Counted from the stretch's first letter, positions 24,186 through 58,747 are shown. The stretch: 64,000 nucleotides of DNA from an uncultured Clostridia bacterium (GCA_944328445.1 CALVHO010000040.1:8018-72017); one strand, 5' to 3'. Notes: generated from the letters alone by a model not told the origin. Made by a program: numbers and translations.

Positions 24186-24404
24186 GTTCACGAAATTTTT
24201 TCAAAAGAGATGAAAAAATTTCCGTGATTTGAAAGACAACCGAATGTTCGCCGCGATAATACGCGGCTCTGCATTCGTTTTTCTCTCTGCGGCGCGCGCC
24301 AAATGCTCTCGATCATAAGCGCGCCGCATTCACTCTTTCCTTATAAGCCGCAAGTTTGCGGCAAATTGGGTGCGCTTAGGCAAAAGTGTGATTTTGCCAC
24401 GCGC
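24186..24404 (-). repeat. Five-hairpin structured repeat, copy 3
   Basis: Reverse complement aligns module by module with 36500-36714 and 58524-58747. Confidence 0.8.
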
Positions 24405-24479
24405 GATAGGATCCTTTTAAGCGGGCGAAAATTCACCCTCTTCCCCTACACCGCTCGTGCGGCGTCGTACGATCCTTGC

Positions 24480-25751
24480 TTACACCTTTGCAAGAGCCTG
24501 TTCGAGGTCGGCGATGATGTCCTCGGGGGCCTCGATGCCGACGGAGAGGCGCACGAGGTTTTCGGGCACGCCCGCCTCTTCGAGCTCCGCTTTGGTGAGC
24601 TGGCGGTGGGTGGTCGACGCGGGGTGCAGCACGCAGCTGCGCACGTCGGCCACGTGCGTTTCCTGGGTGATCAGTTGCAGCGCCTCCATAAAGCGCGCGG
24701 CCTGCTTCACGTCCCCTTTGATGCCGAAGCTGAGCATGCCGCCCTGCCCCTTGGGCATGTACTTTTCGGCCAGGGCGTGGTACTTGTTACCGGGCAGCGA
24801 GGCGTGCCAGACCCAATCGATCTTGGGATGCGCGGCGAGGTAGGCGGCCACCTTCTGCGCGTTGGAGGAATGCCGCTCCATGCGCAGCGCCAGCGTGTCG
24901 GCGCCCAGCCAGCTCAAAAAGGCGTTCTGCGGGCTCATCATGGCGCCCATGTCGCGCATCATCTGCGCGCGGCACTTGGTGGCGAAGGCGGCCGCGGGCA
25001 GGTCGGCATAGACGAGGCCGTGGTAGCTCTCGTCGGGCTCGTTGAACGAGGGATAGCGCGGGTTGCCCTTGAAGGGGAACTTGCCGCCGTCGACGATCAT
25101 GCCGCCGAGCGCCGCCGCGTGGCCGTCCATGTACTTGGACGTGGAATGGATGACGAGGTCCGCCCCCCACTCGAAGGGACGGCACAGCACGGGCGTGGCC
25201 AGCGTGTTGTCCACCGCGAACAGCACGCCGTGCTTTTTGGCGATGCCCGACAGCTTTTCAAAGTCCAATACCTTGATGGAGGGGTTGGCCACCGTTTCGC
25301 CGAAGATGAGCTTCGTCCTGCCGTCGACGAGCTTTTCGATCTCCTCCGCGGGCGCGTCGGGGTCGAAAAAGCGGGTCTCGATGCCGAGCTTGGGCAGCGT
25401 GACGGCAAAGAGGTTGAAGGTGCCGCCGTAGATGGCCGAGGAGGAGACGATGTTGTCCCCCGCGCCGCAGACGGTAAAGGCCGTGAGCGTGGTGGCGGCC
25501 ATGCCCGAGGAGCAGCCGATGCCCGCCACGCCACCTTCCAGAGCGGCCACCTTGCCTTCAAAGGCGGCGACGGTGGGGTTGGCAAGGCGGGTGTAGAAGT
25601 AGCCGTCCGCTTTGAGGTCGAACAGGTCGGCCATGTCCTGCGTCTTTTCGTAAAAATAGGTCGTGCTCTGCGAGATCGGCGGGATGCGCTCCTCGCCGGA
25701 CTTGGGGCGGTAGCCCCCCTGCACGCAGATGGTGTCCGTTTTGTATGCCAT
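24480..25751 (-). CDS. metY: O-acetylhomoserine sulfhydrylase (PLP)
   Basis: YTRLANPT, ETVANP, VDNTLATP, HSTSKY PLP lysine, HPASTTHRQL. Confidence 0.9.
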   Translation of the reverse strand: MAYKTDTICVQGGYRPKSGEERIPPISQSTTYFYEKTQDMADLFDLKADGYFYTRLANPTVAAFEGKVAALEGGVAGIGCSSGMAATTLTAFTVCGAGDNIVSSSAIYGGTFNLFAVTLPKLGIETRFFDPDAPAEEIEKLVDGRTKLIFGETVANPSIKVLDFEKLSGIAKKHGVLFAVDNTLATPVLCRPFEWGADLVIHSTSKYMDGHAAALGGMIVDGGKFPFKGNPRYPSFNEPDESYHGLVYADLPAAAFATKCRAQMMRDMGAMMSPQNAFLSWLGADTLALRMERHSSNAQKVAAYLAAHPKIDWVWHASLPGNKYHALAEKYMPKGQGGMLSFGIKGDVKQAARFMEALQLITQETHVADVRSCVLHPASTTHRQLTKAELEEAGVPENLVRLSVGIEAPEDIIADLEQALAKV

Positions 25752-25853
25752 GGTTCGTTCTCCTTGCCGAAAAATTTTTCCGATCCTTTCGGGAACGCGC
25801 CCGCCTTTTTATGCGGCCGTTCCCCCTCTTGTCCGCGCGGACCGAAGGCCCGT

Positions 25854-26309
25854 TCACGTATATTCCTTGATCCTGCGCTCGGCCTCGCGTTTGAGGTCCT
25901 TTTCTTTGAGGGCCTGCTTTTTGTCGTAGGTGTGCTTGCCGCGGCAGAGCGCCACCTCCGCCTTGACGAGCGCGCCCGAAAAATAGACCTTCAACGGCAC
26001 GAGGGTGTAGCCCTTTTCGTTGACTTTGCCGCAGATCTTGGCGATCTCCGCCTTGTGCAGGAGCAATTTGCGGTCGCGGCGCGCGTCGCGGGTGTTGAAG
26101 GCGCCGCTCTTGTCGTAGACGGCGATGTGCATGTTTTTGATGATGACCTCGCCGCCGCGGACGAAGCAAAAGCTGTCGGAAAGGTTGCAGTTCCCGCGGC
26201 GGATGGACTTGACTTCGCTGCCTTCGAGCACGATGCCCGCCTCGAACTTTTCTTCGATGAAATATTCAAACGACGCCGATTTGTTGAGCGCGACGATCTT
26301 TACCGCCAT
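25854..26309 (-). CDS. smpB: SsrA-binding protein
   Basis: EAGIVLEGSEVKSIR, RDRKLLLHK, RGKHTYDKKQ. Confidence 0.95.
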   Translation of the reverse strand: MAVKIVALNKSASFEYFIEEKFEAGIVLEGSEVKSIRRGNCNLSDSFCFVRGGEVIIKNMHIAVYDKSGAFNTRDARRDRKLLLHKAEIAKICGKVNEKGYTLVPLKVYFSGALVKAEVALCRGKHTYDKKQALKEKDLKREAERRIKEYT

Positions 26310-26821
26310 GTCTCTTCTCCCCGAAGCAGGCCGTACAGGCAGCTGTCGTGCAACCGATCGTTTTTCCAGACGCTCCTGCGCAGAGCCCCTTCCTGCACAA
26401 ACCCGCACTTTTCCAGCACCCGCCGTGAAGCGGCGTTGTCCGCAAACGGCTCGGCGAAGATGCGGCAGATATCCCACCGCGCAAACCCTTCTTTGCACAG
26501 GCGCGACGCGGCTTCCGTCATGATGCCGCGGCCCCAGTACGCGGGCGCCAGCCAGTAGCCCAGTTCCGCGCTTTTACGGTATACGTCGTCCTGTTTTTCG
26601 AGCGAAACGCCTCCCACGGCGCGCCCTTCCACGACGATCGCGCGCAGCAGCGTGTGCGCCTCGTCCGCGCCCGCGGCGAAGGCGATGAACCCGTCCGCAT
26701 CGGCGCGCGTATACGGGTGCGGGAAAGCGTCCCGCAGCCACGCGGCGATGCGGCCGTCGGCCGCGTTCTCCGCCAGCGAAGGCGCAAGCGCGGCGTTCCA
26801 CCGTTCCAAAGAAAATTCCAT
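26300..26821 (-). CDS. GNAT acetyltransferase (RimJ/RimL-like)
   Basis: AELGYWLAPAYWGRGIMTEA, NAASRRVLEKCGF. Confidence 0.88.
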   Translation of the reverse strand: MEFSLERWNAALAPSLAENAADGRIAAWLRDAFPHPYTRADADGFIAFAAGADEAHTLLRAIVVEGRAVGGVSLEKQDDVYRKSAELGYWLAPAYWGRGIMTEAASRLCKEGFARWDICRIFAEPFADNAASRRVLEKCGFVQEGALRRSVWKNDRLHDSCLYGLLRGEETWR

Positions 26822-26838
26822 CGCGATCCCTCCGCGGA

Positions 26839-29088
26839 CTACTTTTTGCGCCGCCTGCCCGGCCGGCGCTTGGCGGGGGCGTGCCCGCCGCCCTTTTTTG
26901 CTCGGGTGCCCTTTTTCCCGCGGCCGCCCGCGGGGTGCTTGCCGCCCTTATGGGCGGGCTTTTCCGCGCCCTTGCGGGCCCTTTCGGCGGGCGCGGCGCT
27001 TTTTTGCCCCGCATTGCCGGCCGCCTCCGCGGGCAGGAAGGTGCAGCGGCGGGCGCCCACATCGCACCCCGCCACGACGATCTCCATGACGTCGCCGAGG
27101 CGGTAGGAGCGCAGCCTGCCCTGCAAGAGGGAATGCGCCTCGTCAAAGGCGTAGTCGTCGGGCGGCAGGTCCTCGATGCGGATGCGCCCCTCGACGGTGT
27201 TTTCCAGCTCCACGAACAGCGCGGAGGCCGTCACGCCCGAAACGGTGCCCGTGAACGCCTCGCCGATGTGGCCGCGCATGTAAAAGACTTTGTACAATTC
27301 GTCGACGTCGCGCTCGGCATCGTCGGCGCGGCGCTCGCATTCCGAGCAGGCCGGGCCCGCGTTTTTGACGAAGGAAGAAAAGCTCTCCGCGCGTTCCGCG
27401 TCGCCGTCTAAAATGCAGCCGAGGATGCGGTGGACGACGAGGTCGGGATAGCGGCGGATGGGCGACGTGAAATGGCAGTAGCAGCGCGACGCCAGCCCGA
27501 AGTGGCCGCCGTTTTCGGCGGAGTATTTGGCCTTGGCCATCGAGCGCAGCATGACCTTGCAGGCGGCGCTCCGCGCGGGCGTGCCCTCCAATTTTTCGAG
27601 CACGCGCGCGTAGTCCTTCGGGCGCACGTTTTCGGGGCGCAGCCCCGCGGCGACGCCCAGCCCCGCCAGGTAGGCGAGGAAGGCGGACGCCTTTTCGGCG
27701 GACGGCTTTTCGTGGACGCGGTACAAAAAGGGAAGTTTGAAGGAGGTGACGTATTCGGCCACGCATTCGTTGGCGGTGACCATGAACTCCTCGATGAGCC
27801 GTTCGGCGGGGCCGCGGGCACGCGGCGCTAAGGCGATGGCGCCGTCGCGGAGGGTGATCTCCGCTTCGGGCAGGGCCAGATCGAGCCCGCCCCGTTCCCT
27901 GCGCTTTGCCGACAGGACGTCGGCGAGGGCGCGCATGTCTTCGAGCATGGGCACGAGGGCGGCGTAGCGTTCACGCAGCGAGCCGTCCCCCGCCAGAATG
28001 GCGTTGACGGCCGCGTAGGTCATGCGGGCGGCCGAGCGGATGACGCCGCGCACGACCTCACAGCCCGTGACCTTCCCGCGCGCGTCCAGCGAAATGAGGC
28101 AGGACAGCGTGTAGCGCGGCTCCCCCTCGTTGAGCGAGCACGCGCCGTTGGAGAGCGATTCGGGCAGCATGGGCAGGACGCGGTCGGGAAAATACACGCT
28201 GGTGCCGCGGGCGTAGGCCTCGTTGTCGAGGGTGCCGCCCCGCTTTACGTAGTGCGAAACGTCGGCGATGTGCACGCCGAGGCGGTAGCCCTCCCCCGTG
28301 CGGGCGAGGGTGACGGCGTCGTCGAAGTCGCGCGAGTCGTCCCCGTCGATGGTGATGACGGTCTCGCCCGTGAAGTCTCTCCGCCGCCCCGCCACGACGG
28401 GTTCGGCGGCCGCCTTTTCGGCCTCGCGCAGGGCGGCGGGAGAAAAAGCCACGGGCAGACCGCAGGCGCGGATGGCGGCTTCCTCCTCCACGGCGAGCTC
28501 GCCGCTTTGGCCGAGGATCTCCTCCACGCTGCCTTCGGGGCTCTTGCCGTCGGGATAGGCGGTGATGCGCACGATGACCTTTTCGCCGCTCGCCGCGCGC
28601 AGGCCGCCGACGACGCGCACCTCGCCGCACAGCCGCCGCTCGTCCGGCTCGACGACGGCGCCGCGCTTGTCCCGGAAATAGGTGCCCGGAACGCGCACCA
28701 TGCCGCGGCGCACGACCGCGTACACGGCGGCCTCGTCTCCGCGGTCTCCGCCGATGAGGCGGGCCAGCACCACGTCCTTGTGCAGCGCGCCGTGCAAGGA
28801 CCTGTGCGGGATGTACCAATCGGGCCCTTCCGCGCGCTTCAAAAAGGCGAAGCCGCGTTCGCTGCCCTGCACGGTGCCGAGGACGAGGCCGAGCTTTTCG
28901 GGCGTGACGAAGCGCCCGCGCTCGTCCCGCACGATCTCGCCCCGCCCTTCGGCCTCCTCCAACAGTCGGTAGAGCGCGTCACGCCCGCCGCGGGAGGAAA
29001 CGCCGAGAAGGCGCGCGATCTCGTTCTTTTTTTTGTATTGCAGCTCGCCCGAACGGATGCGTTCCAAAAGCTCTTCGGCTGCGATCAT
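26839..29088 (-). CDS. rnr: Ribonuclease R
   Basis: TIDGDDSRDFDDA, IEEFMVTANE, HFTSPIRRYPDL, S1 domain, basic tail. Confidence 0.93.
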   Translation of the reverse strand: MIAAEELLERIRSGELQYKKKNEIARLLGVSSRGGRDALYRLLEEAEGRGEIVRDERGRFVTPEKLGLVLGTVQGSERGFAFLKRAEGPDWYIPHRSLHGALHKDVVLARLIGGDRGDEAAVYAVVRRGMVRVPGTYFRDKRGAVVEPDERRLCGEVRVVGGLRAASGEKVIVRITAYPDGKSPEGSVEEILGQSGELAVEEEAAIRACGLPVAFSPAALREAEKAAAEPVVAGRRRDFTGETVITIDGDDSRDFDDAVTLARTGEGYRLGVHIADVSHYVKRGGTLDNEAYARGTSVYFPDRVLPMLPESLSNGACSLNEGEPRYTLSCLISLDARGKVTGCEVVRGVIRSAARMTYAAVNAILAGDGSLRERYAALVPMLEDMRALADVLSAKRRERGGLDLALPEAEITLRDGAIALAPRARGPAERLIEEFMVTANECVAEYVTSFKLPFLYRVHEKPSAEKASAFLAYLAGLGVAAGLRPENVRPKDYARVLEKLEGTPARSAACKVMLRSMAKAKYSAENGGHFGLASRCYCHFTSPIRRYPDLVVHRILGCILDGDAERAESFSSFVKNAGPACSECERRADDAERDVDELYKVFYMRGHIGEAFTGTVSGVTASALFVELENTVEGRIRIEDLPPDDYAFDEAHSLLQGRLRSYRLGDVMEIVVAGCDVGARRCTFLPAEAAGNAGQKSAAPAERARKGAEKPAHKGGKHPAGGRGKKGTRAKKGGGHAPAKRRPGRRRKK

Positions 29089-29227
29089 GCGCCCTCCCTT
29101 TGCCCCGCGCCGTCCGCGGGGCGGTACGGCCGCACAGAGACCGCGGCCGACTTCCTTGAAATAACATTATAAACAAAGGCGGCTATTCCTGGAATAACCG
29201 CCCTTTCCCGTCGTAAAACGCTTGCTA

Positions 29228-29566
29228 TTAGCCGGTGATGCCCCACACCGCGTTGAGCTGCAAAATGAAGAACACGATGGCCAGCACTGCCAGCGTGATG
29301 AGGCAGATGATGGTCCACCTCTTCATCTTGCTCTCCATCGAGCGGCCCTTGTTCTTGCCGAAGAAGGTCTCGCTCGAACCGCCGAGGGCGTCGATACCGG
29401 TCGAGTTGCCGGGCTGGAAGAGCACGATGACGATGGCCGCCACCGCACAGATCAGCATCGCGATCAACAAGATCAGGCAGATGATATGGTATGCCAATTC
29501 GGACGCTTCCGAATTGAAGGCCCCGCCGATCAGCAGGCCGGACAACATTCGCATCGACTCGAACAT
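29228..29566 (-). CDS. secG: Preprotein translocase subunit SecG (start uncertain)
   Basis: Two TM helices flanking LFQPGNSTG...ETFFGKNKGR; position upstream of rnr. Confidence 0.85.
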   Translation of the reverse strand: MFESMRMLSGLLIGGAFNSEASELAYHIICLILLIAMLICAVAAIVIVLFQPGNSTGIDALGGSSETFFGKNKGRSMESKMKRWTIICLITLAVLAIVFFILQLNAVWGITG

Positions 29567-29627
29567 CTTTTACTCCAAGCAATGATTTCCAGCGCCGTGC
29601 CGTACCATAACGGCATACAGCCTATAC

Positions 29628-29656
29628 AGTATACCATACCGCGCGGGATTTTTCAA
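29628..29656 (-). promoter_or_regulatory. Sigma-A promoter of secG-rnr-GNAT-smpB
   Basis: TTGAAA-17-TATACT with TG extension. Confidence 0.6.
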
Positions 29657-29721
29657 CCGTTTTTTTGCGCGTGAACAAACTTTTTCGCGGCGGCGCGAAC
29701 TTTTTTGGCGTTTTGCGCCGC

Positions 29722-31260
29722 TCAGCGCACGATCAGGCTCTTGCCCGTCATCTCGGCGGGCACGGGGATGCCCATCATGTCCAACAAGGTGGGCGCGAGG
29801 TCGGCAAGCACGCCGCCTTCGCGCAGTTTCACGCCTTTGAGCGCGTCGCACACCAGCACGACGGGCACGGGGTTGGTGGTGTGCGCGGTGAAGGGCGAAC
29901 CGTCCTCGGCGATCATCTTGTCCGCGTTGCCGTGGTCGGCCGTGAGCAGCGCGCCGCCGCCCATCTCCAAGATCTTTTTGAGGACGCGGTCCACGCATTC
30001 GTCGACGGCGGCCACGGCCTTTTCGGCCGCTTCCAGAACGCCCGTGTGGCCGACCATGTCGCAGTTGGCGAAGTTGAGGATCATCGCGTCGTACTCGCCC
30101 GTGGAGAGCTGCTCGATGACCTTGTCCGTCACCTCGTAGGCGCTCATTTCGGGTTTGAGATCGTAGGTGGCCACCTTGGGGGAAGGCACCAGCACGCGCA
30201 CCTCGTTCGGGTTGGGCGCCTCCACGCCGCCGTTGAAGAAGAAGGTGACGTGCGCGTACTTCTCCGTTTCGGCGATGCGCAGCTGTTTTTTGCCCAAGGA
30301 CGCGAGGTATTCGCCGAGGGTGTTTTTCAGGCTCTGCGGCTTGAACGCGACCCGCACGTGGGAGAAGGTGGCGTCGTACTGCGTGAAGCAGACGTAATCG
30401 GGCGCGAGGTAGCCCGTTTTGCGTTCAAAGCCGTCAAAATCGGGCTCGGTGAAGGCGCGGGTGATCTCGCGGGCGCGGTCGGGGCGGAAGTTGAAGAACA
30501 CGACGCTGTCCCCCTCCTCGACGAGCGCCACGGGCTTGCCGCCTTTGACGACGTTGGTGGGCAGGATAAATTCGTCGGTGACGTCCTTTTTATAGGACTC
30601 TTCGATGGCGGCGGCGGGGTCCTCGGCGGGGATGCCGTTGCCGAGGGTGAGCATCTCATAGGCTTTGGAGACGCGCTCCCAGCGGTTGTCACGGTCCATG
30701 GCGTAATAGCGGCCGCACACCGAGGCGACGGTGCCGAAGGAGAGCTTGTCCATCTCTTTTTGCAGGTCGCGCACGAAGCCCGCGCCCGAGGTGGGAGATA
30801 CGTCTCGCCCGTCCATGAAGCAGTGCACGTAGGCGTTTTCCAGCCCCTGCCGCTTGCACATTTCCAGCAGCGCGTACAGGTGGGTGTTGTGGCTGTGCAC
30901 GCCGCCGTCGGACAACAGCCCCCAGATGTGCAGCTTTTTGCCCTTTTGTTTGGCGCTGTTCATCGCCCAGAGCAGCGCTTCGTTTTCAAAAAACTCGCCG
31001 TCTTGGATCTCTTTGGTGATCTTGGTAAGTTCCTGGTAGACGATGCGGCCGGCACCCATGTTCAGGTGCCCCACTTCGGAGTTGCCCATCTGCCCGTCGG
31101 GAAGCCCCACGCTCATGCCCGAAGCGCCCAGCTGCGAAGAAGGGTACTCGCGCTCGTAGCGCTTGACGTTGGGGCTGCCTTCCAGCTCGATGGCGTTGCC
31201 CTCTTTGCTTTGGTTTATGCCGTAGCCGTCCATGATGACGATCGCATAAGGTTTTTTCAT
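29722..31260 (-). CDS. gpmI: 2,3-bisphosphoglycerate-independent phosphoglycerate mutase
   Basis: MDGYG, GQMGNSEVGH, ETEKYAHVT, DMVGHTG, TADHGN. Confidence 0.96.
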   Translation of the reverse strand: MKKPYAIVIMDGYGINQSKEGNAIELEGSPNVKRYEREYPSSQLGASGMSVGLPDGQMGNSEVGHLNMGAGRIVYQELTKITKEIQDGEFFENEALLWAMNSAKQKGKKLHIWGLLSDGGVHSHNTHLYALLEMCKRQGLENAYVHCFMDGRDVSPTSGAGFVRDLQKEMDKLSFGTVASVCGRYYAMDRDNRWERVSKAYEMLTLGNGIPAEDPAAAIEESYKKDVTDEFILPTNVVKGGKPVALVEEGDSVVFFNFRPDRAREITRAFTEPDFDGFERKTGYLAPDYVCFTQYDATFSHVRVAFKPQSLKNTLGEYLASLGKKQLRIAETEKYAHVTFFFNGGVEAPNPNEVRVLVPSPKVATYDLKPEMSAYEVTDKVIEQLSTGEYDAMILNFANCDMVGHTGVLEAAEKAVAAVDECVDRVLKKILEMGGGALLTADHGNADKMIAEDGSPFTAHTTNPVPVVLVCDALKGVKLREGGVLADLAPTLLDMMGIPVPAEMTGKSLIVR

Positions 31261-31466: not shown

Positions 31467-31538
31467 ATGTGCAGGTATACGCAATATGATATTTTTGCGC
31501 TGTAATGACAGAGTGCAAAGTTTTGTTGCGGGGAAAGT

Positions 31539-32188: not shown

Positions 32189-32312
32189 CTTTCTCCGACG
32201 GGAACACGGTGCGCGCCTCCGCGGCGCCCCTCCCCTGCCCGCACCCGAACAGAGCGCGGGCGTGTTTCCTTTCCAAATAGTTAACACGATTAACTATTAA
32301 CGGTATAAATAT

Positions 32313-32340
32313 CCGCCGCACCGATGGTGCGGCGGTTTTT
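32313..32340 (+). terminator. Rho-independent terminator
   Basis: CCGCCGCACC-GAT-GGTGCGGCGG-TTTTT. Confidence 0.8.
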
Positions 32341-32347
32341 GGTTGCA

Positions 32348-32872
32348 AGCAGAATGCAGAATGTAAAATGTAGAGTGTAGAATTGAGGAAGGATCCCCTG
32401 CCGCCGAGGGGCCTCATGGCGGGCTCGGGCGAATGTAGAATGTAGAGTGTAGAGTGTAGAATTGAGGAAATAATCTATATTCACAAAAACCGCGGGCTGA
32501 TGCGTGCCGAATGTAGAGTGTAGAATGTAGAGTGTAGAATGTAGAGTGTAGAATGTAGAATGTAGAATTGAGGATGTATCATTATGTCATCCCGAGCCTG
32601 CCGAGGGATCTCATTGTCGGGCCTTCCTGTGGGCGGGCAAGTGAGATCCTTCGACTGCGCTTCGCTCCGCTCAGGATGACAGAGCGGTGCGCCCTCTCTC
32701 TGTCATCCCGAGCTTGCCGAGGGATCTCATTGGCGGGCTCGGGCGAATGTAGAATGTAGAGTGTAGAGTGTAGAATTGAGGACAAAACTTATATCATCCC
32801 GAGCCCGACACAAGGCGCCCAGGCGGGCGTTTGCGAATGTAGAATGTAGAGTGTAGAGTGTAGAATTGAGGA
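32348..32872. repeat. Composite repeat locus: five heptamer arrays + REP-like palindromes
   Basis: Arrays of TGTAGA(A/G) ending AATTGAGGA; GAGATCCTTCGACTGCGCTTCGCTCCGCTCAGGATGACA identical to the copy near 22735. Confidence 0.9.
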
Positions 32873-32931
32873 ATGCCCCCTTAAAACCCTTTTCGGGTAG
32901 TAAGGGGGCAGAATGTGGGCCGATGAAGGCG

Positions 32932-35301
32932 TTACCGTTTGGCGACGGCTGCCGCGCGCATGGCTTTGAGGACGGCATCGGCAATGGCGCTCATGCCGCG
33001 GGCGCCCGGGTGGAGGGTCTGCGTCGTGTCCGCGCCGAAATAGTCCTCCATGTTTTCCTCGGTGATGCCGCTGTCGCGGTAGAGGTCGGCCACATCGTAC
33101 CCGAAACGGAGCGCCAGGGCGCGGATGATGTTGTTGAACTCTTCCAGCGCCACCACGCCGCCCTCGCGCATGCAGCCGTTGGGCAGCAGCGTGCAGCAGA
33201 ACACCTCGGCATCGGGGTAACGGTTTTGGATCTTATCCAGCATCACGGCGTAGTAATCGGCAAAGGTATCGGGGTCGCCGTAGCCGCTTTCTTGGATGAG
33301 CGCGCCCCAATCGATCTCGTCGACGGCGCCGGGATCCAAATAGTACCCGTCGTTTTGCGCATACGCATTGAAGTTGTTGATGCCGATGTACACGACGATG
33401 ACGTCGGGATCTTTTCCGCTATTGACGCCCGCGTCCGCGTGCAGCTGCACGCAGCGGTCCAGCACCCTCCGACCGAAACGGTCGCCCGACCAGGCGTTGT
33501 CGACGAGCACGTTCATGCCCGCCGCGTCCGCCACCTTTTTCCACCAGGTATCGCGCACGTCGTACACGTCAAAAGTATTCACGTTCCCATAATACAATAC
33601 ATTGTCCCCGATGGTGCTGTTGGTATCGGGGTTGTTGGAATAACCGGGATAGGTGGAGATGCTGTCCCCGAGGATGGAGACGTATTTGCCCGCGTACGCC
33701 GCCGCAAACTCCGCCTCCTCCAAGGCCTGCCAATGCTCGGCAAAGGAATGCGCTTCGCCCATGCCGTATTCGTAGTAAATGTCGAACACGAGGTTGTCTT
33801 CATTATTGGGGGCGCCATCGTTGAGGAGGAATTGCCCCTCCGCAAAGCCTCCCCACGCTTTGTAGCCCCATACCACCGTGTCCCCCGACACGCCGACGGC
33901 CAGGCGCTCGTCCTCTCCGCACTCGATGCGGCAGTCTACGTACACGTATTCGTTCGTGAAATTTTCGTGCGGGAGGTGCAGTTCGTATTTTTCGACGTAG
34001 TTGTTTGCGAAATCGCTTTTCTGCGAGACTTTGACCTTGTAGACGGTGACGACGGGGCAGGCGGCTTCGTTCACGCTCTTGACGGGGATACCGATGCGCG
34101 TGATGGTTTTGCCCGCGAACAGGTCCTCGTCCGCATAGGCAAAGGGCGCCACGCCGTAGGCGACATCGCTCAGCGCGCCCACTTCGCCCGCATCCTCTCG
34201 GATATCCGGATACAGCGGCGCGCTGCCCGCGGCGTAAAACTCGGCGCGGACCTGCACCGCGAGGGTATCCGCGAGGCCGTTCTGCTCGCTGAGGACGCCT
34301 GCGGACAGCCTGGCAAAGTTGCCGTCCTCGTCGTCTGCGGGAACGGAAGGCGCGTAATACAGGCCCACCGAGCCGCTGCCGCCGAGCACGAGCGTTTCGT
34401 CCGCGGCGACTGTGAGGCGGAGCCCGATGGTGTTGGCCCCCTCGCTCACGGTATAGGCCTGCGTGTTTGCCTCGGCCGTTTGGGCGGCGACGTCCGCCAC
34501 CTTGGCGGTGCCGATGTGCAGCTGCCCCGCGCTTTGGGCGATGACCCGCAGCTCGGTGACGATGGTGTTGCCGTACTGCGTGCGCTGCGACGCGGGCATG
34601 TACCCCGCCCAGAGCGCGACGGGATCGGAGGAGAGGTCGAGATACCCGCCCGGGTAGTACTTGCTCATGGTGCCTTCGAGCCCGAGGGTGCTTTCGGCCA
34701 CATCCTCGCCCAAAGACGAGCCCGCCGCGTATTCCGTGCGCTCGGCGCCGTTCCAGAAATACCCGTCGTACCCGACGTAGAGGGTCTGGCCGTCTTCGCC
34801 GTCCTCGCCGTCCTCACCGTCCTGGCCGTCCTGGCCCGCGGGGCCCTGCGGGCCTTGGAGGCCCGTATCGCCCTGGTCGCCCTTGTCGCCCTGCGCGCCC
34901 TTGATGTTGCCGATCTTCTCCCAGCCGCTCTCGCCGCGCCGGTAGAGATCGTAAGTCTGCGTGTCGAGGTAAAAATCGCCGACGGCGCCCGCCGTGCCCG
35001 TCGAAGGCACGCCCGCGCCCGTGTACCACGCTGCGCCGTTTTGGCCGTCCTGGCCGTCCTGGCCGTCCTGGCCCGCGGGACCCTGTTCGCCCGCGGGGCC
35101 CTGCGGGCCCGTATCGCCCTTGTCGCCCTTGTCGCCCTTTTCACCCTGTTCGCCTTGGATGCCCTGCTCGCCCTGCGGGCCTTGGGGGCCGGCGGGGCCC
35201 TGCGTTTCGTCGCAGGCGGCAAACAGGGCCGCGCAGCAAAGCAAAACGGCCGCCAGCAACACGACGGCGACGCGCTTACAGATCTTTTGCAGTGTGGTCA
35301 T
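32932..35301 (-). CDS. Lipoprotein with collagen-like repeats and C-terminal SGNH/GDSL hydrolase
   Basis: Lipobox LFAAC; two Gly-X-Y runs; SGNH blocks GDSIS, NAWSG, GINN, TLHP; start at MTTLQK after GGAGG. Confidence 0.82.
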   Translation of the reverse strand: MTTLQKICKRVAVVLLAAVLLCCAALFAACDETQGPAGPQGPQGEQGIQGEQGEKGDKGDKGDTGPQGPAGEQGPAGQDGQDGQDGQNGAAWYTGAGVPSTGTAGAVGDFYLDTQTYDLYRRGESGWEKIGNIKGAQGDKGDQGDTGLQGPQGPAGQDGQDGEDGEDGEDGQTLYVGYDGYFWNGAERTEYAAGSSLGEDVAESTLGLEGTMSKYYPGGYLDLSSDPVALWAGYMPASQRTQYGNTIVTELRVIAQSAGQLHIGTAKVADVAAQTAEANTQAYTVSEGANTIGLRLTVAADETLVLGGSGSVGLYYAPSVPADDEDGNFARLSAGVLSEQNGLADTLAVQVRAEFYAAGSAPLYPDIREDAGEVGALSDVAYGVAPFAYADEDLFAGKTITRIGIPVKSVNEAACPVVTVYKVKVSQKSDFANNYVEKYELHLPHENFTNEYVYVDCRIECGEDERLAVGVSGDTVVWGYKAWGGFAEGQFLLNDGAPNNEDNLVFDIYYEYGMGEAHSFAEHWQALEEAEFAAAYAGKYVSILGDSISTYPGYSNNPDTNSTIGDNVLYYGNVNTFDVYDVRDTWWKKVADAAGMNVLVDNAWSGDRFGRRVLDRCVQLHADAGVNSGKDPDVIVVYIGINNFNAYAQNDGYYLDPGAVDEIDWGALIQESGYGDPDTFADYYAVMLDKIQNRYPDAEVFCCTLLPNGCMREGGVVALEEFNNIIRALALRFGYDVADLYRDSGITEENMEDYFGADTTQTLHPGARGMSAIADAVLKAMRAAAVAKR

Positions 35302-35480
35302 ACTTTCCTCCATACCAAAAACGCCGCGGGGCCCGAAGACGGGAGGATGTTCCCGCAGCTTTCCTTATTATTATAACGCAAAACAGGCGCCCCGTAAATG
35401 GACGCCTGTAACCGCTCAATGGAATTTTGTTAGAAAATCCCCGCCGCGGGCCGCGGCGGGGAGCTTGGTTTTGTAACGGC

Positions 35481-36244: not shown

Positions 36245-36480
36245 GCAGAAATAATGTAGAATGTAAAATGTAGAGTGTAGAATTTAGGACAAATCCTATA
36301 ATCTACTGCGCGCGCAAAAATCACACTTTTTGCAAGCGCACCCGCGGCTCCGCACGAGGCCGGTTTCTCGCGGCCGCCCGTACGGGCAGCCGCTCGCTTC
36401 CGCCTCGGCTCCGCCTCTTTCTTCACAAAAATCTCGGGCTGCGCCCTGCGATTTTTCGTGAGGCTGAGGACAAAAAGTTT
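36245..36480. repeat. Heptamer array plus inverted copy of the 22945-23063 module
   Basis: TGTAGAATGTAAAATGTAGAGTGTAGAATTTAGGA; 36345-36477 is the reverse complement of 22945-23063 and ends GAGGCTGAGGACAAAAAG. Confidence 0.85.
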
Positions 36481-36499
36481 TTATTTTTTATAACTTTCT

Positions 36500-36910
36500 G
36501 CGCGTGGCAAAACCACGCTTTTGCCTAAGCGCCCTCAATTTGCCGAAAACTTTCGGCCAAGGGAAAGGGGTGAAGCCGCGGCATTTTTATAATAGGTGTG
36601 CCCCAAAAGATGCCGCGGCGAGGGGAAAAACGCCGCAGAGCGTAAGCGAACGGCGGTTGTCCCCTCAAAATCACGACTTTTTCTTTTGTCAGCTCAAAAG
36701 AAAAAGTGTGAACACGTTAGGGCACCCTGAAAAAGCGGAAATCACACTTTTCGCTTTTTCACCTTGCGCCGCAAAGCGGCGAACGGATGGGGTGAACGCG
36801 CGCGATTTATAGACTTTGAAGCCGAAATACATCGCGCGCGGAGGGGAAAGCCGCTCGGGTTTCCCCTCCGACTCGCGCAAACCGCAGCATCTCTTTTGCG
36901 AGGTTTGCGC
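36500..36910 (+). repeat. Five-hairpin structured repeat, copies 1 (36500-36714) and 4 (36728-36910) in tandem
   Basis: Same linker motifs and hairpin order as 58524-58747 and 24186-24404. Confidence 0.8.
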
Positions 36911-37044
36911 AAAATTCTTTTCGGCAAGCAGCCGCCCGCAAGACGAGGAAGGCAAGCCCCTGCAAGGGGAGCGTATACAGACATACGTGACCCGCGCAGG
37001 GGCGACGCCTGACACTGTATTGCGGGATGGATGCGAACCGAAAA

Positions 37045-39254: not shown

Positions 39255-39370
39255 TGTTCACACTTTTTCTTTTGAGCCGACAAAAGAAAAAGCCGTGATT
39301 TTTGCGCACGCAGGGTGCTAAGAAAATTTTTTCCTAAATTCTACACTCTACATTTTACATTCTACATTCC
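39255..39370 (-). repeat. Internally deleted structured repeat plus heptamer array
   Basis: Reverse complement: heptamer array-AATTTAGGA...CTGCGTGCGCAAAAATCACGGCTTTTTCTTTTGTCGGCTCAAAAGAAAAAGTGTGAACA, matching 36668-36714. Confidence 0.8.
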
Positions 39371-51157: not shown

Positions 51158-52501
51158 ATGAGAATAATACGTGCTTTGAGATCGGTAAATTATAGACTTT
51201 GGCTTGCAATACTTGCGACAATGTTGTTGCCGACCGTATACCAAACGGTGAGAATATTTTTTCTCGGCGACATGCCGAGCGACAGCGGCATCAATATCGC
51301 GAGCCAATTGCAGTGGGTAAATTTGTTTTATGAAGTGGTGCAAGAAGCGTTGATCTTGCCACTGTTTTTTCTGCTCGGGAAATCGCTTGACGACAACAAA
51401 GAGTTTTCAAACAAAGTCCGCACGGGGCTTGCCGTTACGGGCGGAATATATTTGATCGTTTCCGTGATCATGATCGCTTGCGCCCGTCCGCTCGTTCTGT
51501 TTATGCAGCAAGATGCGGCGCTCGTTGAACAAACCGTTGTTTATGTCCGTTTGGAAACGACGGCGGCGCTGTTTTCTACGCTGTGGCGCTTCATGTCGGT
51601 CGTGCTTGTGACTTTGAAGCGAGACAACTATATGTACATACTCCTCGGGGCACAAATGCTGTTATCCGTTCTTTTGGACACTTTTTTGATCAGCGACCTC
51701 CCCGTTTCCGCAAAAATAGGCGTCAACGGAATTGCCATCAACAACATCACCGTAAACTTGATCGTCCTTGCCATTTCGGTCGCGCTCTTATACCGTGAAA
51801 ATATTCCGCTGTTTGCAAAAGAAAAATGGGATTTCGCCTGGCTGAAAGATTGGTTCAAGGTGGGGAAATTTTCGGGGATCGAATCCCTGCTCCGAAACCT
51901 TGTTTTTATGGTCATGGTCGTGCGCATGGTCAATATTGTCGCGGAACAAGGCAACTATTGGATCGCAAACAACTTTATTTGGAACTGGCTTTTGCTCCCG
52001 GGGCTCGCATTGGCCGATCTGGTCAAGAAAGAAACCGGTGAAAATAAAGAGGCCGTACGCACAAAAACGTTCGGCTATATTTTGTTGGCAAGTATCTTTG
52101 CGGCGGCATGGCTTATCAGCATACCGTTGTGGAAACCGTTTTTGAAGAACGTCATGAACGTTGCCGAATATGAAACCGTATTTAAGATAGTACTCATCGA
52201 AACGGGCTTTTACATCACCTTTCTGTTCAACAGCTGCATTTTTGACAGCACGTTTTACGGGTTGGGCAAAACGAATTATATGCTTATCCAATCGCTGTGT
52301 ATCGACGGCTTGTATTACGGAATAATGTTTATTCTTTACGTAACAGGCGTATTTGTGCCTACACTTTTGGGAATCGCGCTTATGTTCGGTATCGGTATGG
52401 CGCTCGATTTTATTCCTACGCTCATCCTGTACATCAGGCTTTTGAAAAAGGAAAACTTAAAAATAGATCTCAACTTGCTGCCCGATGGCAACTTTGAATA
52501 A
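51158..52501 (+). CDS. MATE-family exporter, AT-richer than flanks
   Basis: About 12 TM segments in two halves; AGGAG RBS; codon usage differs from neighbours. Confidence 0.7.
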   Translation: MRIIRALRSVNYRLWLAILATMLLPTVYQTVRIFFLGDMPSDSGINIASQLQWVNLFYEVVQEALILPLFFLLGKSLDDNKEFSNKVRTGLAVTGGIYLIVSVIMIACARPLVLFMQQDAALVEQTVVYVRLETTAALFSTLWRFMSVVLVTLKRDNYMYILLGAQMLLSVLLDTFLISDLPVSAKIGVNGIAINNITVNLIVLAISVALLYRENIPLFAKEKWDFAWLKDWFKVGKFSGIESLLRNLVFMVMVVRMVNIVAEQGNYWIANNFIWNWLLLPGLALADLVKKETGENKEAVRTKTFGYILLASIFAAAWLISIPLWKPFLKNVMNVAEYETVFKIVLIETGFYITFLFNSCIFDSTFYGLGKTNYMLIQSLCIDGLYYGIMFILYVTGVFVPTLLGIALMFGIGMALDFIPTLILYIRLLKKENLKIDLNLLPDGNFE

Positions 52502-52687
52502 AATCGCCGAACCGTTCTGCAACGGCCGGGCAAGCCGGACGCCCCTTCCACCGCTGCGCCGGGCCCCGCACTTTGGCCCATAACTCTTCCGCACATAAAG
52601 CGCAAGGCGGCCACTCCGCCCCCGCGCGTTCACGCGCGTGCAAAACCCCGGGGCATTGCCCCGGGGCGTTCGTTTCCGTTCAGGCGT

Positions 52688-53221
52688 TCAGCGGCGCGCT
52701 TTGCGCGGGATCAGCAGGCCGATATCCCCGTTGGCGCGCAGGTACACCACGCGCACCTCGCCCGTTTCCGCGTCCTGGAAGATGTAAAAGCTGTGGCCGA
52801 GCAGGTCGAGCTGTTCGGCGGCCTCGTCCGAGGTCATGGGCGTGAGGTCGAAGGTCTTGGTCTTGACCAGCTTGCTCTCGGGCAAAAAGTCGTCGCCGAA
52901 AAAGAGCTGGCCCTGCGCGAAGGCGTCCTTTTTGAGCTGGCTTTCCAGCTTGCCCTTGTGCTTGTAGATCTGCTTTTCGATCTTGGGGAGCACGTCGTCG
53001 ATGCAGTCGTAAAAATTGTCACCGAGCACTTCGGCGCGCACCATGTTGCCCTTGTAGTAGACGGTGATCTCCGTCTTGCAGCGCTTGCCGTCCTGTTTGA
53101 GGTAGACCGAGCAGACGGCGTCTTCGTCGAAATACTTATCCAGCCGCGCCACCTTTTTGGTGACGACGCCCGTCAGCTTTTCGCCTGCCCTGCAATTTTT
53201 TTCGCTGATTTCGATACGCAT
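52688..53221 (-). CDS. hpf: Ribosome hibernation promoting factor (long HPF)
   Basis: KKVARLDKYF, IDDVLPKIEKQIYKHK, PMTSDEAAEQLDLLGHSFYIF. Confidence 0.9.
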   Translation of the reverse strand: MRIEISEKNCRAGEKLTGVVTKKVARLDKYFDEDAVCSVYLKQDGKRCKTEITVYYKGNMVRAEVLGDNFYDCIDDVLPKIEKQIYKHKGKLESQLKKDAFAQGQLFFGDDFLPESKLVKTKTFDLTPMTSDEAAEQLDLLGHSFYIFQDAETGEVRVVYLRANGDIGLLIPRKARR

Positions 53222-53334
53222 GTTTTTTTCCTCCTTACGATCGTTATGCGTGCGGGCGCAGCGTGTGCCCGCTCTTTTTCCGTCCGTGAACGCGCCCGCA
53301 GCGCCGCGCGGGCCCGCCCCTCTTTGCGCCCGCG

Positions 53335-55794
<2,460 letters not shown>

Positions 55795-55883
55795 GTTGTC
55801 TTGGCTCCGTAAAAACCGGGCGCGCGGCTCCGTTTTTGGGTGTACGTATGGTGTTTTTTCGTCCGCGGCGCAGGGGCGCTCTT

Positions 55884-56906
55884 TCAGCCCTCGGGCGGGA
55901 TGCGCACGCCCGCCAGCGCGCTGCGGCAGGCGGCGGCGCGGCGCTTGTCTCGTTCGGCGGCTTCGGAAGCGCCGTCGAAGCGCAGGTCGATGTTCGCGGG
56001 CCGCACGGCGGCGCTGAGCCTGTCCAGTGCGGAAAAGTCGTCCGCCTGCAAAAATCCGAGGGCGGCGCCCAGCTTCACGTCCGAAACGCGCTGCAAAAAT
56101 TCGCTGTACGAGATGCGGTAGCAGGTCTGCAAGATGCCGAGGGCGCGGCGGCAGGCGTCGCGCACGCCGTCGTCCTCGCGGAAGGCCTTGCGCGCCTGCG
56201 CTTCGAGGTTGACGATCTCCAAAGCGGTGTTGTGCACCTCGGCGAGGATGTACTCCTCGTCGACGCCGAGCGTCACCTCGTTGCTGACCTGGTACATGTA
56301 GCCCTCGGCCGCGCTGCCCTCCCCGTACACGCCGCGCACGGCGTGGCCGAGGCGGGAAATTTCGCGGATGAGCGCGTCCATCTTGTTGCGGCGGGTCAGG
56401 CCCGGCAAAAAGAGCATGACCGAGGCGCGCATGCCCGTGCCGAGGTTGGTGGGACAGGCCGTCAGGTACCCCCAATGCGCGTCGAAGGCGAAGCGCAGCG
56501 CCCGCGACAGGCCGTCGTCGACGGCGGAGATGCGGCGGTAGGCGGGCGAAAGGCTGAGCCCGGGCAGGATGCACTGCTCGCGCAGATGGTCCTCCTCGTT
56601 GATCATGATGGAGAGTTTGCCCTCGCCGCTTTCCTCGTCGATGAGCGCGGCGCCGCAGCGGTTGGCCGCGAGCTCGGTGCTGATGAGGTGGTCGTCGCAG
56701 ATGGCCTGGGCCACTACCCCGGAGATCTCCTCCATGCGGTAGAGCTTGAAGGAGCCGAGGCCGCTGGCCGCGGCGTCGACGGCGTTGACGATCTCCCGCG
56801 CCTCGGCGGCGCCGAGGCGGTTGGGGAAGGGATGCCCCGCCAGGTTGCGCGCCAGGCGCACGCGGGTGGAGACGACGGTCGTTTCGATGTTGTTGGGCGC
56901 GCGCAT
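55884..56906 (-). CDS. mcsB: Protein arginine kinase
   Basis: [35 protein letters not shown]. Confidence 0.93.
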
Positions 56907-56907
56907 C

Positions 56908-57393
56908 TCAGCCCTCCCCGCCGTAATCGTCGCGGTACAGCATGCGGCTGATGTCGCGGATGTCGCGGTTGATGCGTTCGGCGTCCTTCATGCGCTTTTC
57001 GCGCACGGCGCGCTCCAATTCGCCGCGCAGGCGCTTGCGCTCGTCCAAAAGTTCGTACATCTTGCCGTCGCCGCAGGGGTGCTTGCCCGTGTGCACGGTG
57101 CGGCCGTGGATGCGGCGCACCGCGGGGCGCAGCTGCTCGCGGAAGGCCTCGTAGCACTCCGCGCAGCCCAACAGCCCCGTGCGGGCGTAGTCGGACAGGG
57201 CGGTGCCGCAGGCGGGGCACACGCCCTCGGACGTTTCCGGCTGCATGAAGGAGACGAACAGCCCCGCGTCGCTGCCGAAATACCCCGCGGCCTCCCCGAG
57301 GCGGGCGAAGCAGTCGTCGCACAGCGGAGGCAGTCCGTCCTCCCCGTCCACGCCGTGCGTGGCTTCCTTGTTGTGGCAATGTGAACAAAGCAT
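56908..57393 (-). CDS. mcsA: McsB activator McsA
   Basis: Four CxxC motifs, LGCAECYEAF, HTGKHP, C-terminal UVR-like helix. Confidence 0.88.
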   Translation of the reverse strand: MLCSHCHNKEATHGVDGEDGLPPLCDDCFARLGEAAGYFGSDAGLFVSFMQPETSEGVCPACGTALSDYARTGLLGCAECYEAFREQLRPAVRRIHGRTVHTGKHPCGDGKMYELLDERKRLRGELERAVREKRMKDAERINRDIRDISRMLYRDDYGGEG

Positions 57394-57482
57394 AGTATGA
57401 ATGCGGGCGCGGGGGCGGAGTGTCCGCCGCGGCAGGCCGCCGCGCGGCCGCGCATGCGCCGTGGTAACGTTTTGTTTTCCTT

Positions 57483-57511
57483 ATTATACCACGCGCGGCG
57501 GCCGTTGTAAA
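57483..57511 (-). promoter_or_regulatory. Sigma-A promoter of mcsA-mcsB-clpC
   Basis: TTTACA-17-TATAAT with TG extension. Confidence 0.6.
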
Positions 57512-57556
57512 CACTTTTTCCGAAAATTAACCGCGGGGCGAAGGCGCGGGGCGCGT

Positions 57557-58255
57557 TCACGCATAGTCGCCGCGGTCCATGCAGGCGCGCACCTTTTCGA
57601 CGGCGCGCTTTTCGATGCGGGAGATGTAGGAGCGGGAGATCTTCAAAAACGCGGCCACCTCGCGCTGGGGCATGGGCGCGCCGCCCTTCAAGCCGTAGCG
57701 CAGGCAAAGCACCGTGAACTCGCGTTCGGTGAGCGCGTTTTGCAAAACGTGCATGAATTTCTCCTTCACCATGCGCTGTTCCACCGCCTTGAACACGCCC
57801 TCCTCCTTTTCGTACAAAAGGTCCATGAGCGTGAGTTCGTTCCCCTCCTTATCTACGCCGACGGGGTCGGAAAGGTACACGGTGTTGCGGTGCTTTTTGT
57901 TGCTGCGGATGAGCATGAGGATCTCGTTTTCGATGCAGCGGGCGGTGTAGGTGGCCAGCTGCGTGCCCCGCCCCTCGCGGTAGGTGTTGACGGCCTTGAT
58001 CAGCCCGATGCTGCCCACCGAGATGAGGTCGTCCGTCTCGGCGGCGCCGCTGTACTTTTTGACGATGTGCGCCACCAGCCGCATGTTGTGGCGGATGAGT
58101 TTATCTTTGGCCTCCTTGTCTCCCTCGCGCGCCAGGCGCAGGCAGCGCGCCTCCTCCTCGGGCGGGAGCGGGCGCGGGAAGGAGCCCTTCCCGCCCACGG
58201 CTGCGGTAAAGAAAACCAGTTTCCCGAACAGGGCACACAAAAAATCGAACAACAT
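57557..58255 (-). CDS. sigK: Sporulation sigma factor SigK (pro-sigma, uninterrupted)
   Basis: Hydrophobic pro-sequence, SFPRPL, HNMRLVAHIVKKY, LATYTARCIENEILM, ISRSYISRIEK. Confidence 0.82.
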   Translation of the reverse strand: MLFDFLCALFGKLVFFTAAVGGKGSFPRPLPPEEEARCLRLAREGDKEAKDKLIRHNMRLVAHIVKKYSGAAETDDLISVGSIGLIKAVNTYREGRGTQLATYTARCIENEILMLIRSNKKHRNTVYLSDPVGVDKEGNELTLMDLLYEKEEGVFKAVEQRMVKEKFMHVLQNALTEREFTVLCLRYGLKGGAPMPQREVAAFLKISRSYISRIEKRAVEKVRACMDRGDYA

Positions 58256-58461
58256 ACGGCCGCCTCGCAAAGGGATTGCCGCGGCGCACCGCGGCACCCC
58301 TACTCTATGCCCGCCGCGGCTTGTACTATGCCCCGCGCCCTCCCTCCGCCCGCGAAAGGATATGGGGGCAACGTGAAAAGGCTTGCGCCGCCCGCGCGGC
58401 ATGGCCGCGGCAACGCAAAAAGGCGCAGCCGTACGGCCGCACCCGAATGGAAAGTGTAGTT

Positions 58462-58747
58462 TGCGAATGTAGAATGTAAAATGTAGAGTGTAGAATTGAG
58501 GATGAAAATTTCTATAATCCCCTGCGCGTGGCAAAACCACGCTTTTGCCTAAGCGCCCTCAATTTGCCGAAAACATTCGGCTGCGGGAAAGGGGTGAATT
58601 TCGCGCACTCAAATAATAGGTGTGCCCTAAAAAGTGCGCGAAAGAGGGGAAAACCGTTGCAGAGCATTGCCACGCAATGCGAACAACGGTTCTCCCCTCA
58701 AACTCACGGAAAATTTTTTCATCAGCTTGAAAAAATTTTCGTGAACA
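58462..58747 (+). repeat. Heptamer array followed by five-hairpin structured repeat, copy 2 (58524-58747)
   Basis: First ~55 nt of the copy nearly identical to 36500 onward; later stems covary. Confidence 0.85.

Follow-up and report, generated by a model that had tools for sequence, protein, structure and literature searches.

We found that a five-hairpin element in a 64,000-nt stretch of DNA from an uncultured Clostridia bacterium (GCA_944328445.1 CALVHO010000040.1:8018-72017; the whole stretch is called the window below) belongs to a lineage-specific, high-copy family of modular intergenic repeats. The element is no artefact: it is abundant, structured, built of modules and dynamic. We put at about 0.5 the probability that it is a non-autonomous repeat of the REP/BIME, BOX or Correia kind, serving as a portable module of leader and 3' hairpins.

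Anatomy and abundance of the five-hairpin unit

The unit is about 190-230 nt long and consists of five hairpins (P1-P5) with conserved, purine-rich linkers between them. P1 is often preceded by a T-rich run and an (A/T)ATAAT box. P1 is a 13-14-bp stem with the tip N-CAC-N' and an unpaired C, in which the apical N/N' pair is CG in 75 copies and TA in 64; the linker CACCCAATTT connects it to P2, a short hairpin that often has a GNRA loop. The linker GGAAAG-R-GTGAA then leads to P3, a hypervariable 10-11-bp stem with a semi-conserved loop. P4 begins immediately after P3 with GAG-R-G-R-AAA, closes with Y-C-Y-CTC, and comes in two forms, one short (about 28 nt) and one long (about 50 nt) with a CAGA/GAA purine loop. 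After the linker AAATC, P5 (about 41 nt) is bracketed by TCNCG..CGNGA, and the unit terminates at GTGA(A).

An earlier note on this DNA had described four copies, and we found all of them in place with the stems and linkers it quoted. A covariance model of the family, R1, refined their limits and scored them at 100-205 bits. Copy A, which has the long form of P4, lies at 36497-36715 (+ strand; 204.9 bits), and copy B, which has the short form, follows it in tandem, 10 nt further on, at 36726-36916 (+; 99.8 bits). Copy C occupies 58521-58748 (+; 199.5 bits) and copy D 24184-24407 (-; 182 bits). Only three copies carry the CAGA..GAA loop, as had been noted; copy B does without it because its fourth hairpin is the short form. 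Each of the four folds far better than its dinucleotide shuffles (z of -7.1 for A, -7.9 for B, -9.0 for C as RNA and -7.6 for D). Two short descriptors, the P1 core motif and GTGAA-N30-60-GAGRGRAAA, match exactly these four copies and nothing else in the window; each gave 4 matches where 0.03 were expected in shuffled sequence, and chance is therefore excluded.

Searching the window with R1 also revealed two remnants that the earlier note had missed. A decayed copy at 36305-36465 (+; 26.1 bits), upstream of copy A, retains P1 (CTGCGCGCGCAAAAATCACACTTTTTGCAAGCGC) and a P5-like hairpin (about 36423-36461), and at 39258-39301 (-) there is a P5-type hairpin on its own (33.5 bits, matching just model positions 175-218), which is kept in strains L114-L116. 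The full copies amount to four per 42 kb of native window DNA, or about one per 10 kb. Around copy D, the sequence L074 is 99.8% identical to the window.

Copy C illustrates the architecture. Its P1 (58524-58556; this and all following parts on the + strand) has an outer GCGC stem, an inner GGCAAAA/TTTTGCC stem, and the apical N-CAC-N' with its unpaired C; P2 (GCCGAA..TTCGGC in the computed fold) spans 58566-58581. The invariant GTGAA precedes P3 (58599-58643), a 10-11-bp stem with the loop ..ATAATAGGTGTGCCCTAAAA.., and P4 (58644-58699) combines a GAGGGGA/TCCCCTC outer stem with an inner stem, the CAGA/GAA internal loop and a variable tip. P5 is a 41-nt hairpin at 58704-58744 within TCACG..CGTGA. 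As read from the sequence, a TATAAT box (58513-58518) stands 5 nt upstream of P1; the corresponding box of copy A, TATAAC (36489-36494, +), follows a T-rich run upstream of its P1.

We built R1 from a seed of 32 aligned long-P4 copies, whose consensus fold has compensatory changes in 36 of its 47 pairs; this seed superseded a plain MAFFT alignment of 93 copies, which had given a poor consensus fold (-16 kcal/mol). Scoring every position, we found 236 matches at E < 1e-5 in 732 kb, made up of 100 sources from about 60 related gut genomes, so that the family is far larger than the four copies first described. A pattern scan of species-representative genomes, in which only loop and linker bases were fixed, matched at least 112 stretches. 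Among the listed matches, nearly all hosts were Ca. Borkfalkia, Ca. Gallimonas and uncultured Clostridia/Christensenella from chicken, human and mouse gut; one listed match lies inside an Ignavibacteria gene and looks like chance. Borkfalkia, which NCBI places in Christensenellales, belongs with its relatives to the common bacteria of the gut, which are mostly uncultured and are known chiefly from assembled metagenomes; the element appears to take up a large share of their intergenic DNA.

The element corresponds to no catalogued family that we could find. The whole window gave no Rfam 15 match at gathering thresholds, and for copies A and B a search at E up to 10 returned chance-level matches only, of which the highest scored 21.5 bits where the threshold is 77. 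We found no match to the element in viral contigs, and no description of it in the literature on Borkfalkia repeats, Christensenellales non-coding RNA or mosaic intergenic repeats. A larger variant of about 250-280 nt (L003, L007, L011, L015, L028, L069, L070, L073) occurs in two 'Christensenella-like' genomes, MGBC120929 and SRR14411246_bin.13; it has longer P2 and P5 hairpins, its own flanking motifs (..CCTGGCGGTTA, ATGCYCCGCAGG..) and tandem arrays, and scores just 35-70 bits with R1.

Base pairing and the two strands

The earlier note had claimed strong covariation in the stems. This held on 150 model-aligned copies, in which the hairpins stay paired well beyond chance, the set to which the pairing figures below refer: standard pairs filled 95.6% of 7242 cells, compared with 68.6% when the 3' partners were shuffled and 43-54% when they were slid by 1-3 columns. 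Double changes occurred in 47 of the 51 pairs and the covariation score was 0.637 (0.180 with shuffled and 0.10-0.14 with slid partners), figures that come from an alignment fitted to R1 and from related copies in which modules are inherited as units. The earlier note had overlooked one point: much of the covariation is passed on in whole hairpin modules, shuffled from copy to copy, and so not all of it is independent compensatory change. Helix by helix, the P1 pairs 4-7/38-41 and 12-16/28-32 were 95-99.6% paired; helix 3 (P2) was 94.6% paired and had double changes in all of its 4 pairs, helix 4 (P3) was 97.4% paired and had them in all of its 10 pairs, helices 5 and 6 (P4) 90.5% and 98.8%, and helix 7 (P5; 17 pairs) 95.2%.

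The pairing is almost purely Watson-Crick, with G·U-type cells at 1.2% and A·C-type cells at 0.6% (87 and 46 cells, respectively). Copy C folds with a z of -9.0 as RNA, -9.8 as DNA and -8.5 as RNA of the opposite strand. Across the family, the forward-strand fold was lower by a mean of 1.7 kcal/mol (84 vs 65 copies, p = 8e-4), and GNRA tetraloops outnumbered those of the complement 40 to 10. The excess of G·U, the GNRA loops and the fold difference weakly favour an RNA of the strand on which the unit is read here. As to the selected molecule, the evidence fits RNA and single-stranded DNA alike, because the pairing is near-purely Watson-Crick and both strands fold equally.

One long-range coupling accompanies the stems. 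The purine of the J2/3 linker (G-R-GTGAA) tracks the purine of GAG-R and its pyrimidine partner, and co-varies with pair 340/515 of P4: the combination is GG-C in 100 copies and AA-T in 41. This coupling spans the shuffled P3 and is independent of P1 type; it might reflect a base triple, an alternative helix of 3-4 bp or an old subfamily linkage. A mutual-information search for pseudoknots brought out just this coupling and the apical pair of P1. Pairing of the P1 loop, or of a GCCC in the P3 loop, with GRGTGAA showed no covariation and was dropped.

These features bear on an alternative that we consider unlikely, namely that the copies are independently transcribed structured small RNAs of the same strand that work in trans, one possibility being that they bind or titrate a protein. 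Each copy would then have its own -10 box and 3' hairpin, and the hypervariable P3 would serve as a specificity tag. Such a role would suit linkers and loop nucleotides that are conserved while the stems vary, an apical N-CAC-N' pair and unpaired C that are nearly invariant, and a J2/3-P4 coupling that persists across shuffled P3 stems and irrespective of P1 type, as well as the strand differences in GNRA loops, fold energy and G·U over A·C. The opposite strand folds as well, though, and structured RNAs usually tolerate far more G·U than 1.2%; both observations count against it.

Stems restricted to Watson-Crick pairs and a strong DNA fold are also what a single-stranded-DNA element would show, and here the unit would be an IS200/IS605-type derivative or REP-like, with P1 and P5 as its subterminal hairpins; an HUH (Y1) transposase from another locus would move it, and its interior could be a guide-RNA scaffold of the TnpB/IscB kind. 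We regard this as quite improbable. The IS605/TnpB and HEARO/IscB models of Rfam remained unmatched, also when the cut-off was relaxed to E = 10 for copies A and B, and five hairpins with conserved linkers would seem to go far beyond what a transposase end needs.

Mosaic copies and strain variation

Comparison of the hairpins between copies revealed extensive exchange. At least one hairpin was 90% identical or more, and another less than 60%, in 1622 of 11175 copy pairs, whereas just 7 pairs were alike in all five hairpins; among the 150 copies we counted 69 distinct P3 5' arms and 53 distinct P1 arms. Copies A and C, for example, are 100% identical in P1 and 94% in P2, but 58-67% identical in P3-P5. 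The copies are thus mosaics in which hairpins have been exchanged at the conserved linkers. Where copies about 90% identical occur in different contexts, the shared sequence runs from P1 (or the AT box) to GTGA(A) and stops 2-3 nt before the end of the model, and this limit therefore defines the unit. Truncated copies and lone P1 or P5 modules occur, and other small repeats are nested in P3 loops.

Two loci show rearranged modules. At L114:2478-2730, a B-type copy contains an exact internal duplication of its J2/3-P3 segment (GAACGGATGGGGTGAA plus P3, twice), which as read from the sequence appears to be evidence of slippage or unequal exchange at conserved linkers. About 300 nt upstream of plsX in L077 lies a tandem array of three units, each made of P1-only modules and an AT-rich spacer; single hairpin modules can therefore amplify alone.

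Exchange may also reach across species. In two species whose hisS genes agree at only 60% of four-fold sites, the copies that precede hisS are 95% identical, and a third, equally distant species has a copy of only 55% identity at the same site. Either strong constraint plus replacement or recent exchange would account for these values; the first pair favours the small-RNA alternative and the third species speaks against it. In addition, a block of about 400 nt, comprising a head-to-head partner, spacer, element, ribosome-binding site (RBS) and ATG, is 92.5% identical before plsX (L013) and before hisS (L094/L072) in different species, and appears to behave like a movable promoter-leader cassette.

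We also read the spacers of contigs that encode the window's exact TpiA, ProS or MetA and scored them with R1. Sites flanked by identical proteins held 0, 1 or 2 copies, the insertion polymorphism for which the earlier note had suggested looking. The pgk-tpiA spacer ranged from 143 to 817 nt and carried no full copy in L115, one in L116 and in L114, and two in L113 and the window. The spacer between proS and the sigma-factor gene (495-821 nt) carried one or two: the L124 copy corresponds to C except that its P3 is that of A, and a B-type copy is inserted precisely at its 3' terminus; in L123 the second copy is truncated. At this site, then, P3 is swapped between strains, and B-type copies are found there in other strains. 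The metY-metA spacer was 306 nt with one copy or 59 nt with none; copy D is absent in L128 and L131 despite identical MetA. Copies that come and go between strains with identical neighbours would be unusual for essential RNAs, a further point against trans-acting small RNAs.

Several aspects of this variation would suit transposition of single-stranded DNA: the hairpins at both ends of the unit, the sharpness of those ends, and the arrival of new copies exactly at the end of an existing one, as with the B-type copy in L124. The mobilising enzyme is another matter. The earlier note had considered the element a possible substrate of an HUH transposase or reverse transcriptase and had suggested a search for a linked gene; among 577 flanking proteins from 112 loci we found no recurrent group of this type, judging by the first residues of the 25 largest of 400 protein groups, with no domain search. 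The recurrent groups inspected were all housekeeping (plsX, synthetases, smc, dnaK/J, dnaX, fabF). We likewise saw no transposase in the native part of the window, and the 5' junctions revealed no tetranucleotide target that is conserved.

Other repeats share these intergenic regions. A second family, with 13 copies, consists of tandem heptamers (GAATGTA, GAGTGTA, AAATGTA) that end in GAATTGAGGA; it is found at 22630-23150, 32352-32891, 36252-36308 and 58465-58521, and adjoins copies A and C directly upstream. A promoter-like site (TGGAAA-16-TAGAAT, 58448-58475) is predicted in this repeat. A third family (..GTCATCCCGAGCC..CGAGGGATCTCAT..), often joined to the heptamer repeat, occurs at 22589-23154 and 32311-32872 and in the pgk-tpiA spacers of L115 and L116; it fills that spacer in strains without the five-hairpin element. 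Small P5-like hairpins (AAAAATCTCG..GC..CGATTTTT, often bracketed by CACG/CGTG) lie at 22361-22411, 22528-22578 and 36425-36475; such hairpins stand alone, upstream of the AT box of many copies, or nested in P3 loops (L004, L120).

The first third of the window differs in composition. Positions 1-22300 have a low GC content (35-48%, vs about 62% elsewhere) and end with the gene for a 507-residue serine recombinase (20775-22298), which adjoins 98-nt direct repeats of 95% identity at 22278-22375 and 22444-22541. Strain L128, whose MetA is identical, has no recombinase beside metA, and the segment looks like a strain-variable integrated element. A separate source of strain variation is the gene at 32932-35313 (-), which encodes a collagen-like (Gly-X-Y) repeat protein with a GDSL-lipase domain and has 9-nt periodic DNA repeats; the protein ranges from 589 to 805 residues across strains with identical TpiA.

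Genomic placement, possible function and known systems

Within the window, orientation relative to genes varies, as had been reported. Copy D lies in the spacer between metY (the gene for O-acetylhomoserine sulfhydrylase) and metA, on the gene strand, and the RBS and ATG (24173) of metA follow directly. The tpiA-pgk spacer contains copies A and B, which are antisense to the two genes. Copy C separates proS from a sporulation-type sigma-factor gene; it is on the opposite strand, convergent with proS, and its 3' end stands 3 nt from the proS stop codon (58751). We assigned these gene names from the sequences in the list of open reading frames.

For the family at large, we called genes by third-position GC, a procedure that reproduces the obvious genes of the window, and classified the neighbours of the 150 best copies. 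All 150 are intergenic. On the 3' side, 75 copies face the stop codon of a convergent gene at a median of 3 nt (10th-75th percentile -9 to 7), 35 precede a co-directional gene at a median of 16 nt with only an RBS before the ATG, and 25 precede the next tandem copy at a median of 12 nt. On the 5' side, 46 copies have a head-to-head partner at a median of 20 nt, across a near-palindromic spacer (ATTATT..AATAAT) of about 18-20 nt, and 63 have a gene at 150-180 nt. The orientation, opposite to neighbouring genes about 2 to 1, would be expected of a single-stranded-DNA element, but the frequent head-to-head pairs, seen in 8-kb pieces of draft genomes, argue against a strict replication-strand bias.

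This placement speaks strongly against another alternative, that the element is a cis-acting regulatory leader (a riboswitch, T-box-like leader or attenuator) sensing a common signal. The idea of a T-box or riboswitch had arisen from the position of copy D before metA, and it has some appeal for the 35 co-directional copies: their 3' ends lie 8-30 nt before start codons, including those of hisS, cysS, metK, metA and a leuA-like gene (named from N-terminal sequences), and J2/3 (A-G-R-G) could pair alternatively with the 3' arm of P4. The counts largely rule it out as an account of the family. These 35 are just a fraction of the 110 gene-flanked copies, in agreement with the earlier note's argument against a riboswitch, and the remaining 75 face the 3' end of a convergent gene. 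The genes directly downstream also include fabF, plsX, dnaX, rsmI and rbgA and are not one regulon. Moreover, we found no pair of terminator and antiterminator and no Rfam match, and strains with identical MetA do without this leader altogether. We therefore hold a sensing leader to be most improbable.

The surroundings of the unit carry promoter-like and terminator-like signals. A match to at least 5 of the 6 positions of TATAAT occurs within 18 nt upstream of 48-65% of solo, first or head-to-head copies, typically about 5 nt before P1; in second tandem copies the share is 12%, and in background windows it is 3.5%. Loss of the box from second tandem copies is what co-transcription predicts, and this lends some weight to independently transcribed small RNAs; for the third of copies with an RBS right after P5, however, there would be no room for a terminator or a second promoter. 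On the minus strand, which is the strand of pgk and tpiA, P5 of copy A scored as terminator-like. Promoter and terminator roles for the element are plausible but not strong. P5 as a strong bidirectional terminator was rejected, being only moderately supported. An element-specific RBS (GGAG..TTTT..ATG) was also rejected, the same style being found at genes without the element.

We favour the reading of the element as a non-autonomous repeat kept as portable transcript punctuation. Like the mosaic repeats of other bacteria, it fills intergenic space to the coding boundaries, solo, in tandem or head-to-head; it is gained, lost and rebuilt between strains and diversifies by exchange of whole hairpins at the linkers. 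On this reading, the unit, which on its own strand often begins behind a -10-like box, would form the whole 5' leader for about a third of neighbouring genes. On the other strand, the strong P5 and the further hairpins would stand right after a convergent stop codon, where they could terminate transcription or stabilise the mRNA. A need to fold in both directions, or as DNA, might then explain the near absence of G·U. The sequences themselves show the structure, conservation, modularity, placement and strain polymorphism; transcription, the activity as terminator, stabiliser or promoter, and the way of spread are all parts that we infer.

Several observations weigh against this reading. Across the family, neither a -35 hexamer nor a TG extension gave any signal 5' of the AT box, a result equally awkward for small RNAs. 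The terminator features are moderate: between 55 and 77% of copies have AAA before P5, and 23-35% have TTTT within the 12 nt after it. The metY-metA polymorphism looks like allele replacement and not like clean insertion, because the filled and empty alleles differ over the entire spacer and the end of metY. At the pgk, proS and metA junctions we saw no target-site duplication, in alleles that differ by replacement or by neighbouring repeats and include no filled and empty pair with otherwise identical flanks; nor does the unit have terminal inverted repeats, since its 5' terminus (the AT box with the foot of P1) does not reappear as a reverse complement in its 3' terminus (..CGTGAA). The lack of inverted repeats, and of any duplication at these junctions, would in fact be in keeping with movement as single-stranded DNA. 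No transposase was found among the inspected groups of flanking proteins. The linkers are conserved across genera and the stems vary, the opposite of what neutral decay would do to a selfish repeat, and this points to a specific function or partner. Finally, some features are RNA-like on one strand: the GNRA loops, the purine-rich internal loops and the J2/3-P4 co-variation.

The conserved linkers also admit a bolder proposal, which we think rather doubtful: that the elements encode structured RNAs of a new and abundant class, in which the linkers would form a common core bound by a protein of the host or of the element, and the freely exchangeable, perfectly paired P3 (P1, P5) stems a combinatorial address or specificity code. 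Extrapolation from the window suggests possibly on the order of at least 100 copies per genome. If true, this would be a modular RNA system of a kind undescribed in bacteria, as opposed to passive repeats.

Whatever its nature, the element bears on how transcripts start, end and are stabilised in these genomes, where hisS, cysS, metK, metA, plsX, fabF and other housekeeping genes have it as their complete 5' leader, and on how a repeat family keeps five hairpins paired while shuffling them. It also bears on gene calling and assembly, because contigs break at repeats. As an RNA, it would be a large new family with unusually clean structural support; as a DNA element, it would be a new non-autonomous repeat architecture. 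R1 could be used directly for annotation.

Likenesses to known systems are several and partial. Like T-boxes, the element is about 200-250 nt long and multicopy in Firmicutes, has conserved linkers and variable, co-varying stems, and in some cases precedes aminoacyl-tRNA synthetase or amino-acid genes; unlike them, most copies are not upstream of a gene, and it has no T-box sequence, specifier loop, terminator/antiterminator or Rfam match. With IS200/IS605-derived elements and TnpB/IscB scaffolds it shares the lack of inverted repeats (and, at the junctions seen, of target duplication), structured ends (hairpins P1 and P5 lie at the ends of the unit), a conserved, RNA-like build of several stems over 150-250 nt, and the presence of more than one copy per genome. 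It differs from IS605-orfB and HEARO in that there is no Rfam match and no tnpA, tnpB or iscB was seen among the inspected flanking proteins. Its copies within a genome are highly divergent mosaics, moreover, and not near-identical.

The closest parallels are behavioural. Correia repeats (NEMIS) of Neisseria are small intergenic repeats whose promoter- and terminator-like signals alter the ends of neighbouring transcripts; they have terminal inverted repeats, a TA duplication and one long hairpin, none of which was seen in the element. BOX of Streptococcus pneumoniae (boxA-boxB(n)-boxC) is a modular Firmicutes intergenic repeat with a predicted stable structure and no transposase of its own. 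Like BOX, the element consists of modules that vary in number and combination beside genes, but the two are unrelated in sequence, and BOX modules are conserved in sequence whereas the stems of the element are hypervariable and only its linkers conserved. We know of no report of base-pair covariation of this depth in BOX. Both BOX and Correia repeats have been reviewed (Delihas 2008, PMC2229807).

With REP/BIMEs the element has in common a high copy number, an extragenic location, mosaic clusters of tandem or alternating hairpins (46 of the 150 copies have a head-to-head and 25 a tandem partner) and a strain-variable copy number. REPs often lie very near stop codons and affect termination and mRNA stability. 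In enterobacteria and pseudomonads, REP/BIMEs are associated with RAYTs (Nunvar et al. 2010, PMC2817692); no RAYT was seen near the copies in the 25 largest groups of flanking proteins inspected. A REP is a single imperfect palindrome of 20-40 nt with a GT(A/G)G head, whereas the element has about 215 nt, five distinct hairpins and long linkers, and in the aligned copies there is no GTAG or GTGG head at the feet of its stems. The element fails defining tests for REP (a single palindrome with its head), miniature inverted-repeat transposable elements (MITEs; terminal inverted repeats), T-box (placement) and every Rfam family; judged by these comparisons, it resembles the mosaic extragenic repeats REP/BIME, BOX and Correia in its behaviour, and not in sequence or architecture.

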